In this document: positions 3,833 to 63,619 of the stretch, piece after piece | How positions within the stretch are numbered: position 1 is the first letter of the stretch | Layout of the letters: each line of letters begins with the position of its first letter | From: Eledone cirrhosa | Lineage: Eukaryota | Direction of reading: 5' to 3' | DNA length: 64,000 nt | NCBI GenBank assembly: GCA_964016885.1 | Contig: CAXHJY010001510.1 | Span: 1-64,000 of the forward strand | The notes under the pieces: model-generated | Seen by the model: only the letters and a program-made list of their open reading frames with translations | The model's database searches: none | What the model was told of the DNA's origin: nothing | Made by a program: the position numbers and the translations under genes

Positions 3833-3901
3833 ATTTTATTATGCGCATTTCAAAAACAAATATCATCATGCAATAATATTTGTGTTTTCATCAGATAAAA
3901 C
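3833..3901 (-). ncRNA. Type I hammerhead ribozyme
   Basis: GUUUUAU CUGAUGA AAAC ACAAAUAUUAUU GCAU GAUGAUAUUUGU UUUU GAA AUGCGCAU A AUAAAAU. It has a 7-bp stem I, a long stem II and a palindromic stem III. Confidence 0.8.
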
Positions 3902-4266: not shown

Positions 4267-4460
4267 ATATAGATGAGATTCTACAGGACTAGAACTGTTT
4301 CATTCTTTAGAAATCATCAGCGATTCCTGATGATTTCTCAAGAATGAAACAGTTCTAGTCCTGTAGAATCTCATCTATATTAAAACTTTTATACTCTACT
4401 ATGTATTGAGTACCTTACTTACTGTGGTTACCTCCGATTCAACCCGGAATAACTTACCTA
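4267..4460 (+). mobile_element. Short HHR-bearing element (family A) with an inverted 5' copy, ending in (TA)n
   Basis: Inverted arms at 4267-4320 and 4327-4380. The same sequence recurs at about 35150-35320, 41205-41341, 49901-49962, 52090-52135, 57660-57750 and 63337-63513. Confidence 0.8.
4322..4370 (+). ncRNA. Type I hammerhead ribozyme (family A)
   Basis: GAUUC CUGAUGA U UUC UCAA GAA U GAAACAG UUCUAGUC CUGU A GAAUC. Stems I and III pair fully, the triplet is GUA, and there is a U.U at the base of stem II. Confidence 0.75.
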
Positions 4461-19883: not shown

Positions 19884-20460
19884 AATACATAGGTACATAT
19901 ATATATACACATACATATTTATGCATACATATACGTACATACATATACATACATATATATATATGTATACGTACATATATATATGTACATACACATACAT
20001 ACATATACATACACATATATATATATACATGCACACGCACACCCACACACACATACATATATAAATACATACATTATCTCTCCTCTCTCTTTCTCTCTCT
20101 CTCTATATATAGTTATGTAATAAACAACATAAGGCAATTATTCCATTTACCAGTGGTTTCTTAAAAGCAAAAAAATTTGCTTTCAATCATCAGAATGAAA
20201 AAATCTATTTAAGTTAAATAAGATCTACATACAACTGTATCTGCACCTCGGCGGCAAGCTTGCTGGCGTGCAAATTCGTGCATCAACGTGGTATTGCAGT
20301 TGTAATGCCTGTTTGTCCAATAGATGTGAAAACCGGTCTGTTTGTTAGATGTGTGTGGGAGAAGATAACCAAATGCAGAATGGGCAGGAATATTTACAGG
20401 TGTCTTTTGATAAAAAACCGAGATGAATGCAGTTAAAAATATAGATATAAATATAGACTC

Positions 20461-20500
20461 TCAGAGTTCTTTCGTCACACACCCGTGACATCATCAGTGA
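20461..20500 (-). ncRNA. Minimal type I hammerhead, with a diverged inverted partner at 20527-20566 (+)
   Basis: UCA CUGAUGA U GUCAC GGGUGU GUGAC GAAAG AA CUC UGA. The partner reads CUGAAGA U GCCAC..GUGAC GAAAG GA CUC and has a weak stem I. Confidence 0.65.
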
Positions 20501-20987
20501 TACTATTGTTAGGAAACATAATAGTATCACTGAAGATGCCACAGGTGTGTGACGAAAGGACTCTAAGAGATGAATATATGAAAATATTGCGACTAGATGT
20601 AAATAAAGAGAGGTACCATGTAAAATGTGCAACATGCCACACACACACATACATATATATATATATACACAGACAGAATGAGAGAAACAGGGATGAGCGT
20701 GTATATATATATACATATATATATATATACACACACATATATATATATACATATATATATACACACACACACACACACATATATATACATATATACAAAC
20801 ACACACCCACATATATATACATACATATACAGACACACAAATATATATTCATATATATAGACACAGATATATATATACATATATAAATATATACACACAC
20901 ATATTTATATACACACGCACACATATATGCATATATGCATATACACATCAACATATATATATATACATATATACGCAGACACACACC

Positions 20988-21957: not shown

Positions 21958-22395
21958 ATATTGTTATACTTTGGGAGGGTCATGTTGCCAATAAGAAACA
22001 CACGCACCAGTTGCTTTCACTTCAATTTATTATAATAAATTTAAAAATTTAGGAATTTATAAATTTTCGGTTGGTTGGTTGGTTGGTTCCACAACCAGAT
22101 GGTTGTTTATATATTGTCAAAGTTCTTTCGTCACATATTCTGTGACCTCTTCAGTGGCTGGGGATTATTTTTTTGTTTTTTGTGCCTCTCCTTTGTTCTG
22201 TCCCCAGTCACTGAAGAGGTCACAGAATGTGTGACGAAAGAACTTTGACGATATATAAACAACCATCTGGTTGTGGAACCAACCAACCAACCGGAAATTT
22301 ATAAATTCCTAAATTTATAAATTTATTGTAATAAATTGAAGTGAAATCAACTGGTGCGTGTGTTTCTTATTGGCAACATGACCCTCCCAAAGTAT

Positions 22396-22403
<8 letters not shown>
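21958..22403. repeat. Fold-back inverted repeat, arms about 205 bp, 36-bp spacer
   Basis: 21958-22164 is the reverse complement of 22201-22403 with few mismatches. It lies between (TA)n tracts. Confidence 0.93.
22207..22249 (+). ncRNA. Minimal type I hammerhead, with an inverted partner at 22116-22158 (-)
   Basis: GUCA CUGAAGA G GUCAC AGAAUGU GUGAC GAAAG AA CUU UGAC. Confidence 0.75.
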
Positions 22404-22476
<73 letters not shown>

Positions 22477-22477
22477 G

Positions 22478-23045
<568 letters not shown>

Positions 23046-23359: not shown

Positions 23360-23571
23360 TATTTATGTATCGAGAGAGAGAAAAAAAGAGGATAGGTGAT
23401 ACATATAGTTATTTGCCAAGTAGCGTATGCCAAAGTTGCTCGATACTAGTGCCGGCAGTATTAAATATTCGATGTGTTAATATTTAGTGGGCTAGAGAGT
23501 TAGCAGAGCGTAAGCACGTGGGAAAGTAAGAAATCGGAGAATAGACCGTTAAAACATGTTTATTTAAAACA

Positions 23572-23611
23572 GCACCTACGTACGTTTCGCCCAGTTGGGC
23601 TTCTCAAGGGC
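23572..23611 (-). ncRNA. Type I minimal hammerhead ribozyme, U3-A8 core variant, in the PLE 3' region
   Basis: Minus strand reads GCCC UUGAGAA GCCCA AC UGGGC GAAAC GUAC GUA GGUGC. Stem III is palindromic (ACGUACGU), the cleavage triplet is GUA, and AAUAAA follows shortly after. Confidence 0.75.
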
Positions 23612-23979
23612 ATAAATAATCAAAAGTGTTCCCTACATTGCTCGGAAAGAGTTTTTGGGGTTAAATCCACGTCAAGGTTCATTGCTCGCAAAAATAGCTT
23701 GTTTTGGTTTTGCAGCAGGTCAAGAGAGGTAACTCTGGCCGGTGTTAGGGCAGTCTTTCCCGGACACATTTTTTTATCCGCTACGAGATGAGGTTACAAC
23801 CTTACCATTGTCGATACGCATGTAATCAACGCTTATTTTGAGAGTTTTTTTGCCGCATCTGTTTGTCTGAGTCGTTTGAGGCTGGGTCTGGTATGCAAGG
23901 ATAGTTTCCTGGGTGTTATTTTGCAGCGCCTGCCCGCCGGGGTGTTAAGACTTGTTGCAGGGAGATCCGGTGCACGGTT

Positions 23980-25428
23980 TCACTCCTCATCCTTAACCCA
24001 TCTGAAGAAGGATATTTTTAAGCGATGTGTACAACTTATCGCTGTTTCAGCTCTGCTATTGATGAGCTCGTGTGGTGCAGTTATGATGTGGTAGAGCTCC
24101 ATGAGGCAAAGATCGCATTTCCTCTTGAAGTTGTACGGTGCAGCCCTGCCGACAATATCCCAGTGCGTGGAGAAGCTGATGTTTAAGTCCTTTAGTGATG
24201 TGATGTAGTCCGCGTGCGAAGTGGAGTGTCTTAGTTTTTTATTTGTGAAAGAGTGGAGATGTGTTCGAAACCTAATTTTGAACGGGCCAGAGGTAGCCCC
24301 TATATAATGTTTAACGCTATTGTGGATAGTTATAGTGCTTCTATATATAACCCTATCAGTCAAGCAGTATCCTCTAAGAAGGCAGCGTCCTCTGTCGCGG
24401 CAGTTGCAATTTCCGTCGCGGTTCCGTCTATTTCCCACGGTAAGGCTATCGTTGTTGCTGCCTACGTTGTTACCTACGCTACCGCAGCTGTCGTTAGCAC
24501 CATTACAACCCACAGCACGCGGGGTGGTGCGATTGTTATTCCGCACGTCATGTCCTGCATGTTCCCCAGTCATTTCGCGGTTATGCTGGTTGCGTCCGCG
24601 GATGCCGTTCCCAACACTATTGGATGCTGCCAGGGAGTTGTTAAGGTCGATATAGTTATTGTCAGGTGTAGGTGCGTCTGTGTCGAGTTGCTGTGTCTTG
24701 GTGATCTTACTGTGGTTCGTTGTTCCTATGATGTCTTCTAGGTTAGGAGTAGTAGACAAGGATATTTTTATATTGTTCCTATTTAGAATTTTTCTATACC
24801 TATAGTTGGGCGGGAAGTTCTTCTCTAAGGCTTCGAAGAACATCCCGGTATGTTGGAGGCCACACTCCGAGAGTAGGAGGGGGTGGAACCATAGGACGTT
24901 ACGGTGGCGATTACATGTCCTTGTACGTTTGCTACGGGTGGTTCCATCTAGGTTACCGTTCTTATGTGTGTTAATGCGCAGTCGCCCGTTCGGTGCCCCT
25001 TTCACTTTATGCTCGGGTGCACTCTTCCTACCTCTTCCATGTTTATGTACAAGAAGATGTCGTTTGGAAGGCGTTGGTAGTAGGCCGTCGCCTTTGTTGG
25101 TTTTGTAATAGGGGAATAGTTCGAGTAATCTACAGTGGTCACCGTCGCCGGGGTCGTGATATTTAGTGCGGTTATCTATTCCATTATATCCGACTTCAAC
25201 GAGGTCGCCGCGTGATCGGTTATAGGTATGGCTTACTATAACGTTCGTTTTATGAGGGGGGGGGGGGGTTCTAGAGCTAGCGTTAAGGATGTAGGAAATT
25301 CCTCGGTTAAAGCCGGCGCTTATCAAGGCCCTATTGTAGTAATCTGCCGCTTGGTTAAAGATATCCTCATTGGCGGATAGCCTCGAGATTCTATGTGAGA
25401 TACTATAGACTATGGAGTTGAGAGTCTG

Positions 25429-25430
<2 letters not shown>
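23980..25430 (-). pseudogene. PLE polyprotein C-terminal part: RT thumb, linker, Cys motif, GIY-YIG endonuclease
   Basis: The frame is open from the TA junction: QTLNSIVYSISHRISRLSANEDIFNQAADYYNRALISAGF ... RNVLWFHP ... KILNRNNIKISLSTTPNLEDII ... CNCRDRGRCLLRGYCLTDRVIYRSTI..KHYIGATSGPFKIRFRTHLHSF ... KCDLCLMELYHII..INSRAE..CTHR. VIY-YIG and the conserved R, E and N residues match PLE GIY-YIG domains. The RT catalytic core is missing. Confidence 0.9.
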
Positions 25431-25513
<83 letters not shown>

Positions 25514-25744
25514 GCAAGTCTGAAGAACTATTAGATAAAATATATACAGTACTTCCTCTCCTAATCAGTATACATATATGCATATATGCAGAGTTTATAT
25601 TTAATTTGTTGGGATTCAACAAGCTTAAACATTTTTATAATTGATATAAAGCACTCAACAGATAATGGATCTATCCAGGAAGCTCCAACCGTTAAGGTTG
25701 TCTTTTTTTCCGGTATGTCAATATTTATTCATAAAACGAATCTG

Positions 25745-25810
25745 TATTTTATCTGATGAAAGCGCACCATAATTTGTCTTGGTTGCCCTTGAAATATGTA
25801 TAATAAAATA
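25745..25810 (+). ncRNA. Type I hammerhead ribozyme (family B)
   Basis: Nearly identical to 22756-22821 with an intact core. Confidence 0.72.
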
Positions 25811-26252
25811 AATATGGGTTTATAAATATAGTTTCCATTTATTAATATATTGTATATATATATATATATATATATAAATACATACATATATATATACATA
25901 CATATATATATATATACATATAATATATATACATATAATATATATACATATAATATATACATATATATATATACATATATACATATACATATATATATAT
26001 ATATACACATATATATATATACATATATATATATATACATATATATATATACATGTATATACATATATATATACATATACATATATATATATACATATAT
26101 ACATATATATTTACATATATACATATATATTTACATATATACATATATATTTACATATATATATAAATATATATATATAAATATATATATATAAATATAT
26201 ATATATAAATATATATATATATAAATATATATATACATATATATTTATAAAT

Positions 26253-27480: not shown

Positions 27481-28681
27481 ATTCATTGGTTTCCACTCTT
27501 TCCGTTCCGCCTTTGCCCCCCTTCCCCCTCCCCTTCCTCTCCCACCTTCTCCTCCTTCCTTTCATCATTTGCATCGTCATCATTACCATCATCATCATCA
27601 TCATCATCATCGTCGTCGTCATCATAATCAAGATCATCGTCGCCATCATCATCATCATCACCATCGCCATCGTCACCATCATCACCACCGCCATCAGCAT
27701 CATCACGACCATCATCACCACCATCACCACCATCATAATCAATCGTCCCCATAATGCTCATCTTTTTCTTCATCTCCCCCTGACCCCTCCCGCTACCGCC
27801 ACCTGGTGGTGTCCAGCAGAAGCAAGCGGGACAATCGTCGATGCATTTCCAACTGAACTGGTACTCATCAGGACGATCGCTCCATTCTTGCAACTGCTGG
27901 ACTTTGAAAATAGGCGAGAATATATAGTTTTCTCGTCTGTGTAAATGAGGTGATTAATCACATTTGTATATGAAGCTGTATAACTTGGCTCAACATAAAA
28001 TAGAATAGAAGTAGAATTTAGCTTCGAACATAGCTGCATACAGATATGTACTGGAATTTTGAAATTCTAAAGAAATACGGTATGTTTTATAAATAAACAT
28101 TTAGAAAGCTGTAGCTATGCAAAAAACACAGGCAGCTATCGTCACCCGATGGTGTCCAGTAGAAGCAAGAGGGACAATCGTCGATGCATTTTGAACTGAA
28201 CTGAACTGGTTCTCATTAGGACGATCGCTCCTGCTCTTGCAAATGATGGACTTGAAAACAGGTACAAAAAATGTGTACACACACATACGCATATCTAAAT
28301 AAACAACACAATGCACTCTATCCGTATACGTGAGAAGAAAATGAAAAGAGAATGGAAAACATGCAAAATTGTCGACATAATAACTTCCTTTATCAAGGCG
28401 TGTGGCCTGAAGTGGTTAGATAATTGGATTCACAATCTTGAGGTTGTGAGTTTCGATTCCTGGACCGGGCGATGCCTTATGTCCTTGAGCAAGACACTCT
28501 ATTTCACGTTGCTTCTTCTACCTGGAGTTGCGACCGATAGATAGTATTAGCAACTGGAAAGACCAACGGAAACATTGTTTCCTCGGTCCGATTTGACAAA
28601 GTCGATCGATATATATATATATTATCAGCGGAGCCAAACGACGTACCTTCTGTGTTTTGCTAAAAAGCTTCACATTTTGTA

Positions 28682-35147: not shown

Positions 35148-35470
35148 CGTACGTTATTCAGGGTTGAATCGGAGGTCACCACAGTAAGTAAAGTACTCAA
35201 TACATTGCAGAGTATAAAAGTTTTAATATAGATGAGATTCTACAGGACTAGAACTGTTTCATTCTTTAGAAATCATCATCATCATATCAACTGTTTCATT
35301 CTTTAGAAATCATCATCATCATCATATATATACGCACATATGTCTGTACGTATGTGTGTGTGTATATATATATATATTATATATATATACACACGCATGT
35401 AGAGACAGGGTGACAGTCAGACAGTGAGGTGCGCGACCGTGTGTGTGTGTGTGCGTGCGTGCGCGCGTCA

Positions 35471-41206: not shown

Positions 41207-41257
41207 GGCTTCCTGATGATTTCTCCCGAATGAAACAGTTCTAGTCCTGTAGAAACC
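41207..41257 (+). ncRNA. Type I hammerhead (family A)
   Basis: GGCUUC CUGAUGA U UUC UCCC GAA U GAAACAG UUCUAGUC CUGU A GAAACC. Confidence 0.7.
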
Positions 41258-49862: not shown

Positions 49863-49902
<40 letters not shown>

Positions 49903-49959
49903 TCGATGATTTCTAAAGAATGAAACAGTTCTAGTCCTGTAGAATCTCATCTATATTAA

Positions 49960-56109: not shown

Positions 56110-56701
56110 TCCCCTCACTAAAGGTTTTCTACCTAAATCCTTGCAGTAATTCAACCCTCACCTCTTTTTCTTTCCTTCTCCCGGTTCTACAACTCGGACA
56201 TTTCAAATCCAAGCACAGCTGCACACGGACGGAGCATTCACCTCTTCCACAGTGCTCCCACTGCTTACGACCGGTTGCTGACTCACTCCTCTCGCTAGTT
56301 TCGTGTAGGAGTGATGGTGGGGCTCATTTGACACTTCAACCGCTTCTTGTGGGTAGTTCGTGTGGCCTAGTTGTTACGGCGCTGAATTGGACTCACGATC
56401 ACAAGGTTGTGTGTTCGATTTCTGAACCGCGCAGTGGGTTGTGTTCTTGAGTAAGTTACTTTATTTCACATTGGTTTTTTATGGTAGGATTGAAGTGGGG
56501 CCCTCTTCCCCCCATCCAGAAGATTCCTATGAGATAGATTACAAACAGTGTCTAGGTTAGGGTCACCCTCCCACGGGGCTTCATTTTAAAATCATTTTTA
56601 TTTTATCATGAGTTTTTATTTTTTAACACCAAAACATCCTAAAGATATTTTTTCCAATTCCACCCCGCTCGTCCCTTCAATCTATTTTTTTTCTCATTCT
56701 T

Positions 56702-56737
56702 TCTTCTGATGAAGGACTAGCGTCCGAAACGTTAAGA
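56702..56737 (+). ncRNA. Minimal type I hammerhead (family D)
   Basis: UCUU CUGAUGA A GGAC UAGC GUCC GAAACGUU AAGA, with a palindromic ACGU mini-stem III. A degenerate relative lies at about 39031-39065, and the tail alone at 54105-54184. Confidence 0.78.
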
Positions 56738-56846
56738 CCCTCTTCCTGCTATTGCAAGCGTTAACCTAATATATCCCTTCCATATACTGTACCGATTGTG
56801 TTGTTATTTCTGTTTACCTTTTACACAGACACACACACATATATAT

Positions 56847-57502: not shown

Positions 57503-57673
57503 CACCCCTACCTGCTCGTTTCTGGTCCAAATCTTTATATACTGATACCCTCAACCTTGATGTTAATTGTTGTCGTTTAGTACCAGGTCAGGGCAATGCC
57601 GGGCCTTCCAGCCGTGAAAATCTCATCTTTTATTCTCAGTCAAGGCATACATATCGTGTTTAACATAGAAATA

Positions 57674-57723
57674 GCTTTTACGGGACTAGAACTGTTTCAT
57701 TCAAAAGAAATCATCAGGAAAGC
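57674..57723 (-). ncRNA. Family A hammerhead, probably decayed
   Basis: GCUUUC CUGAUGA UUUC UUUU GAAU GAAACAG..CCGUA AAAGC, with mismatches in stems I and III. Confidence 0.45.
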
Positions 57724-62282: not shown

Positions 62283-63619
62283 AATATATTCAGTGTTGGG
62301 TTTAGGACATATGAGGCCCTGTGCTGGTTAAGTTATGAGGCTCCTTACTCGTAAAAACATTTATCGTAAACATTTTTTTGGCTGGAATATGGGTCCTTTC
62401 CCCTGGCCAACGGGGCGGGACCCTGTGCTTAAGCACACCTTAGGACAATGATAAATCTGGTAATGAATAAATGGCACCTCCAATGTTGATTGTTTTTTTT
62501 TTAAATTCAAAGACCAGGTTTAAAATGTCCCATCTTTCTCTCATATTGGCAATGTCTATGTTGTGGAATATTTTCATGGCCACCATGTATCGAAAGAGCT
62601 TATTCGTAGTTGGTAGGTTATTAACAATATATACAGTGCTGGATTTAGGACAAATGAGGACCTGTGCTAGTTAATAGATCTTTTACAATACATGACATCT
62701 CAAATGTTGATAGTTTTTTTTATTCAAAGGCCAATTTGAAAACGTCCCATCTCTCTCAGACTGTTATTGTTTCTATTGTGGAATCTTTTAGTAGCTCCCA
62801 TGTATTGGAATACCCTATTTATAATTAGTAGATCCTTGATAGTATATTGTTTACATAATCTTGGTATTAAAATGCCCTCTCTCTCTCTCAGATTGGTAGC
62901 TTTTTAAAATAAATAGGGCCATAAATTTATAACATGTAAATTCTTGAAAATATATTAACATAATCTTGGCATTACTTTATTTCTTGAGACCAATTTTAAA
63001 ATGCCCCTCCTCTTAGATTTGTAGTTTTTTTTCACTGCCATACGTATTTAGAATAGTTTCCACAAGAACATAAAAAGGTTTTATCCTATACGCTCCATTC
63101 TTGATAAGGCCCGGTTCGAAACTAACAAAATCTTTGTTTCTTAAAGGGTCGTCCTCTGCGGCCCGTTTGGCTTTCTGAATGGTACACCTAATTTCAAAAT
63201 TGCTTTGAATGTTTTAGTAGTGCAGCCCGCCTTGTGATGAGCCACATCTTATGCGGCGAACTGCTCGAAAAGGGTTGCCCATGTCTGCCCTATGTTTGCG
63301 CTTGGGGTCCCGACTCTTATATATATATATATATATAGATGAGATTCTACAGGACTAGAACTGTTTCATTCTTGAGAAATCATCAAGATTCCAGGACTAG
63401 AACCAGTTCTAGTCCTGTAGAATCTCATCTATATTAAAACTTTTATACTCTACTATGTATCGAGTACCTTACTTACTGTGGTTACCTCCGATTCAACCCG
63501 GAGTAACTTACCTATATATAAGGGTTAAAATACTGGAGCGTGTTGGAGTTAAACACCCTCTTCGTATTATAGAAATGACAGTAAAAAGTATAGCTCAATG
63601 TAATTAAACAGAGCCGAAG

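Follow-up and report, generated by a model that had tools for sequence, protein, structure and literature searches.

The window analyzed here, a 64,000-nt stretch of Eledone cirrhosa DNA, carries a hammerhead-like motif with a U3-A8 core downstream of the endonuclease ORF of a Penelope-like element (PLE). The question it raises is whether this is a working ribozyme of its host element, the remnant of one, a device at the RNA 3' end or a fortuitous resemblance. The whole type I motif, helix I arms included, occupies 23572..23611 on the minus strand, as do all features of the motif and its PLE given below. Core positions 3-9 (23601..23607) read U3 (23607), U4, G5, A6, G7, A8 (23602) and A9 (23601); all core bases besides U3-A8 are canonical, with A at H17. 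Stem-loop II (23589..23600) combines four Watson-Crick pairs (23600-23597 with 23592-23589) with a 4-nt loop, is closed by G10.1-C11.1 and is stable in every computed fold; the extra base after A9 (before 10.1) is absent. G12-A13-A14 (23588-23586) and a perfect 8-nt palindrome (23585-23578, positions 15.1-16.1) together cover 23578..23588. The palindrome is predicted to form an intermolecular helix III (duplex -9.8 kcal/mol), and within a monomer it amounts to 2 bp and a GUAC loop. By hammerhead numbering, cleavage is predicted 3' of A17 (23577). The 3' arm of helix I (23572..23576) faces 23608-23611, giving two contiguous base pairs, or four if one U is bulged. An AAUAAA hexamer (23564-23559) lies 12 nt beyond the predicted cut, and the motif starts 369 nt beyond the stop of the ORF at 23980-25527, on its strand. 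The UUGAGAA core, perfect stem II, AAUAAA, ORF strand and ~370-nt spacing described in an earlier note on this DNA were all confirmed on the minus strand. A register with C3, an inserted U and a missing N7 was set aside as less parsimonious than the published core.

Which element carries the motif? It had been called a coding PLE, and it is indeed a PLE with a GIY-YIG endonuclease, but a 5'-truncated fragment: the start codon and the RT core are absent, and the first 30-odd codons of the ORF are (TA)n. From its 5' end, truncated at (TA)n, the fragment comprises the end of the RT thumb and the "RNVLWF" block (24421..25430, with two in-frame low-complexity expansions), followed by a CxCX5C linker and a Hydra-type GIY-YIG endonuclease (23980..24420, without CCHH and with CxxC and CxH flanks; stop at 23980-23982). 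A 3' untranslated part, the presumed pLTR, then runs over 23360..23979 and ends at ~23360 beside (TA)n, compared with ~23516 in other copies. The accessible text of PMC8557442 gives as diagnostics of the Hydra clade a CxCX5C linker, the lack of CCHH, CxxC and CxH around the conserved E and N, and (TA)n insertion. These endonuclease motifs are all found in the window element, which has (TA)n at both ends; other copies have (TA)n loose ends.

Homology searches differed in their outcome. Pfam returned no family for the 479-aa fragment and word-index protein searches found no relative, whereas a full HMMER search with the 146-aa endonuclease recovered, at E<=0.001, 3590 relatives, the best of them at 1.8e-27. 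When metagenomes were scanned with an alignment of 12 proteins, 498 relatives came up, from which the best 80 loci were kept; among these 80, the window's thumb, WF block and endonuclease matched 17, 59 and 80, respectively. Of the two RT motifs that mark the Hydra clade, DKT is present in 21 and RWK in 12 of the 24 ORFs longer than 520 aa in the related loci. The window endonuclease sits on a long branch and shares no more than 44-47% identity with the loci it was compared with. In-window blastn detected no second copy of this PLE, and viral contigs yielded neither a related endonuclease nor an exact motif match. The two in-frame expansions (24421-25300(-)) are free of stops and measure 167 residues against 50-55, and 165 against 76-81, in related Hydra proteins, or about +114 and +87 residues. 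Since the 2.07-kb fragment starts at the thumb and carries ~200 extra residues, a full copy would exceed 3 kb; Hydra-clade PLEs are described in PMC8557442, as far as its accessible text goes, as generally short (<3 kb).

We then asked whether U3-A8 occurs in the hammerheads of related loci, using a clade descriptor left free at positions 3 and 8 and applied to the sense strand within 700 nt of the endonuclease. A hammerhead was found in 49 of the 80 loci, many of the other 31 being contigs that end too soon. Positions 3 and 8 formed C3-G8 in 47 of these motifs and U3-A8 in two (L024 and L080), with no mismatched pair; counted as distinct motifs, the figures were 37/39, 2/39 and 0. Compensation at positions 3 and 8, which the earlier note had proposed, is therefore real in the clade. 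The 49 hammerheads lie 73-538 nt past the endonuclease match, and the window motif lies 415 nt past it. When both strands were scanned, the count was 51 C-G, 3 U-A and 1 U-G. The third U-A motif, in L036 (L036:1783-1826), is decayed and carries G12A as well; the U-G match is antisense in the ORF region of L031 and probably arose by chance. A looser scan added two U-C and one G-C pair, all as second matches in loci where a canonical motif is present and all misfitting the clade descriptor. On an endonuclease tree of 40 rows, three of them U3-A8, the core pair required three changes, and a single origin was not rejected (p-AU 0.106). With L036 added afterwards, within a starred group that holds four C3-G8 rows, four changes were required and a single origin was rejected (p-AU 0.013).

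Several further observations concern these relatives. The closest relatives of L036 are C3-G8, and its G12A change also occurs, at a CpG, in C3-G8 copies (L074:2237-2344; L077:2257-2314). A Hydra hammerhead at L005:974-1017 is perfect except for G17. In the related loci L010 and L011 alike, the canonical motif is followed after ~90 nt by another hammerhead-like string, whose U3 and C8 form no pair and which is possibly a chance match. The same motif stands at both ends of L063 (10-63 and 2501-2546, separated by 2.49 kb), and in another five loci a hammerhead lies upstream of the RT, which agrees with the expectation for a pLTR. More broadly, hammerheads at both ends or in inverted copies were seen in the Hydra PLEs L063, L060, L034 and L077. 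The only match in genome contigs, on a bacterial chromosome (L081:1501-1529(-)), has a U3-A8 core, stem II and the GAAAC pattern, and could form stems I and III, though short ones; we set it aside, with ~1.6 such matches expected by chance according to a hand estimate.

Could a loosened hammerhead pattern have picked up the window motif by chance? A strict descriptor, composed post hoc with the motif already known, matched 0.02 times per 64-kb block-shuffled window (150 shuffles) and not once when the 620-nt 3' region was shuffled 5000 times. The motif is moreover the sole candidate in that region, has the AC...GU palindrome of the Hydra clade, and lies on the strand and at the distance typical of Hydra PLE hammerheads. 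Model scores spoke less clearly. A local Rfam scan of 23380-24000 reported no hammerhead family at E<=10, and a scan of the whole window was swamped by microsatellite matches (150 of 646 listed). We therefore built a Hydra covariance model from 23 C3-G8 motifs, those among the 37 in which stem II is short; the stems of these 23 covary (87% paired, 0/500 shuffles). This model gave the U3-A8 motifs of L024 and L080 ~29.5 bits (E 1e-7) and the window motif 11.9 bits (E 0.2 over the window). Weighing the silence of Rfam, the E of 0.2 and the post hoc descriptor against the shuffles, position and palindrome, we regard a chance match as extremely improbable.

Whether the variant core belongs to the family or to a single copy can be read from other copies of the element. 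Contigs from 4 of 11 sequencing runs (organisms A-D) were aligned to 23385-24430. In organism A alone 2408 contigs aligned, and the PLE family is therefore abundant; this run may come from the same source as the window itself. Among the 40 of 113 substitution rows listed, none falls in 23546-23622; the probability of 0/40 rows in 77/1046 nt is ~0.05, with the rows listed not a random sample. One contig of organism C spans 23390-23759 with 12 differences, 11 of them listed outside the motif, and is identical over 23531-23622; its motif is identical because the 14 changes counted in that run are all explained by listed rows. The main contig of organism B (23577-23764) has eight differences, seven of which are listed outside the motif, so that C3 and G8 cannot be present in it together. 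Another contig of organism B, of low depth, ends at the same base; from the way assembly graphs work, this suggests a difference at position 3 in one of these two contigs. In organism D, the main contigs break inside the motif, with two unlisted differences each. A depth peak at 23525-23594 in run X1 fits conservation or extra short copies alike. No full-length family member, and hence no 5' ribozyme, was seen among the aligned copies. Position 23516, within (TA)n and ~60 nt past the predicted cut, is where many copies stop (11 contigs of organism A and one of B); the window copy continues to ~23360.

Conservation across genomic copies, which the earlier note had put forward as a check, thus came out in favor of the motif: it is kept, and in organism C without a change. 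Judged from these alignments, U3-A8 is an inherited trait of the family and is not private to the window copy. The double change, which the earlier note had taken to suggest selection, is thus not supported as proof of it in this one copy, as it is an inherited family state.

Nor is the variant new. Natural U3-A8 covariation in several hammerheads, with activity in vitro cited, appears in the accessible text of Perreault et al. 2011 (PMC3088659); the window motif shares the covariation. Cervera and De la Pena 2014 (PMC4209133) describe, in the parts available, U3-A8 minimal hammerheads in Cercyon PLEs and ~1,300 in Schistosoma mansoni, with U3-A8 in 2/56 representative motifs and a 2-bp helix I in 6/56. 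The rarity claimed earlier, or novelty as a discovery, is therefore not supported, and the window motif is an ordinary further example of a form already published for PLEs. With the Cercyon U3-A8 motifs, as far as that paper's available parts describe them, it has in common the core pair, type I topology, a short helix I, a palindromic 15.2-16.2, the location in the PLE 3' repeat and presumed activity as a dimer. It differs in its Hydra-clade element, in its 4-bp helix II without an extra base after A9, in its 8-nt palindromic helix III, and in having A at N17, able to pair with U3. The extra base after A9 is also missing from several published PLE motifs (PMC4209133 and PMC8557442, accessible text).

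Similarly, the hammerheads of Hydra-clade PLEs described by Craig et al. 2021 (PMC8557442, in its accessible parts) resemble the window motif in their sense orientation, in their place past the GIY-YIG ORF and close to the 3' end, in their AC...GU quasi-palindromic helix III and in their (TA)n insertion sites. All 26 Hydra rows (25 families) in the available File S2 of that study are C3-G8 and were found with a canonical descriptor; the short motifs of the family studied here are absent from its supplement. Our literature search, with most subscription papers outside its scope, found no report of U3-A8 for Hydra elements. The Penelope hammerhead of Drosophila virilis (PMC4209133, accessible text) shares with the window motif a 2-bp CC/GG helix I and a small palindromic helix III; unlike in the window motif, its core pair is C3-G8, its helix II is long and bulged, and an intron ends at its helix I. 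A comparable intron end was considered for the window motif and dropped, there being no AG acceptor within 20 nt upstream.

Is the motif likely to cut? The MFE structure of the monomer is not a hammerhead: the GAAAC strand pairs with downstream sequence, which buries GAAA and the cut site. The z-scores of two shorter folds were -0.5 to -1.0. The hammerhead-compatible monomer fold lies 5.0 kcal/mol above the MFE, a gap that ranks 25 of 38 motifs and is mid-range for the clade. A constrained double hammerhead reached -31.8 kcal/mol, 3.8 lower than two monomers (-28.0 kcal/mol). This active fold is not the lowest-energy dimer, which lies at -34.4 kcal/mol, and pairing of U3 with A17 stabilizes each dimer by 2.2 kcal/mol. 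This pair is an analogue of the C3-G17 trap in PMC3884650, a paper whose accessible text reports that how well core changes are tolerated varies from one ribozyme to the next. Low activity is therefore predicted from the short helix I, the U3-A17 pairing in the ground state and the inactive best dimer fold. Weak cleavage would have company among published motifs: according to the available text of PMC4209133, minimal motifs cleaved weakly and only as dimers, and even canonical minimal PLE hammerheads are poor in vitro.

Taken together, we think it reasonably likely that the motif represents the 3' hammerhead, in the published U3-A8 form, of a high-copy PLE from the Hydra clade, with self-cleavage that is likely weak and confined to paired motifs. 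Where a full-length or tandem element places two motifs on one transcript, base pairing between their 8-nt palindromes would join them in a double hammerhead, in whose active fold U3-A8 would take the place of C3-G8. Cutting after A17 would then trim a tandem precursor to unit-length RNA, the role proposed by Cervera and De la Pena in the accessible text of PMC4209133. The window copy itself is probably an inert insertion, because it has lost the 5' end, the promoter and a second ribozyme.

The folding results bear equally on a second account, which we consider unlikely, though well above the other alternatives: the motif could be a relic, fixed in the family and catalytically dead or negligible, in which helix I of a U3-A8 ancestor eroded and the family spread without cleavage. 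Helix I is indeed weak (it has at least 4 bp in 35/39 distinct relatives, against two contiguous pairs here), the covariance-model score is low, and the competing monomer hairpin and the U3-A17 trap would both hinder the active fold. Naiad PLEs proliferate without canonical hammerheads, and identity over 80 nt is a weak sign of selection among copies that differ by a few percent. Against erosion, the other core bases, G10.1-C11.1 and the perfect palindrome are all intact, and the folding gap falls in the middle of the clade's range. The available text of PMC4209133 also records that the D. virilis motif, one with the 2-bp helix I seen in 6/56 PLE motifs, cleaved in extended form.

The position of the AAUAAA hexamer raises a further option, that the motif acts as a monomer controlling the RNA 3' end. 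Here a distal A-U stem that includes AAUAAA would extend helix I and create an internal loop able to contact loop II, and the poly(A) signal would be lost through the cut. By eye, 7 bp more of A-U stem can be traced past the bulged helix I, but this stem is missing from the computed folds. AAUAAA lies at most 40 nt past the cut in 8/36 relatives, compared with 5/151 for upstream windows and a mean of 2.0 after shuffling, yet the hexamer is absent there in the other 28. In addition, helix III of the monomer has only 2 bp, and the accessible text of PMC4209133 reports no cleavage by a single minimal motif. We hold this option to be very improbable.

A more elaborate reading is conceivable and, in our judgment, rather doubtful. 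Hydra PLEs would repeatedly swap C3-G8 and U3-A8 without mismatched intermediates, and the divergent, long-linker family studied here would have fixed a damped form, in which U3-A17 pairing joins helix I to helix III and the two are opened only by a partner copy or by a protein. If true, cleavage would be a gated step of retrotransposition.

The earlier note had also linked the hammerhead islands elsewhere in the window directly to this PLE. Wherever their core is intact these hammerheads are C3-G8, and they belong to several unrelated families; blastn (word size 7, E<=1) found no similarity between the islands and the studied PLE. The direct link is thus not borne out, and what connects the islands to the PLE is analogy only; they appear to be 3' stubs of other PLE families. 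One dispersed C3-G8 hammerhead-like family, unrelated in sequence to the studied PLE, has an unusually long helix III region and several copies decayed at position 3. Its copies lie at 4278-4325(-), 4321-4371(+), 35281-35322(-), 41207-41257(+), 49901-49945(+), 57656-57723(-) and 63344-63390(-). Two ~90% identical fold-back elements (22455-22870 and 25540-25860) flank the PLE in (TA)n, on the opposite strand, with C3-G8 hammerheads at 22758+ and 25747+; a similar motif occurs at 3834-3900(-). Further C3-G8 hammerheads, some of them inverted pairs in long palindromes that resemble inverted 5'-truncated PLE ends, were found at 20450-20560 and 21958-22403 (cores 20497-, 22154- and 22211+), and at 20142-20199(-), 27834-27877(-) and 56700-56739(+).

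These results open no new mechanism, as the variant, the PLE context and the dimer model are all in print. They extend the range of U3-A8 hammerheads among PLE groups to the Hydra clade, at ~5% of the distinct motifs sampled there, and indicate that the swap arose more than once within it. As the earlier note had anticipated, searches restricted to CUGANGA miss the window motif, and such searches undercount motifs of this kind. For the PLEs themselves, the swap makes a modestly stronger case for selection on the active fold of their hammerheads, as a predicted function.
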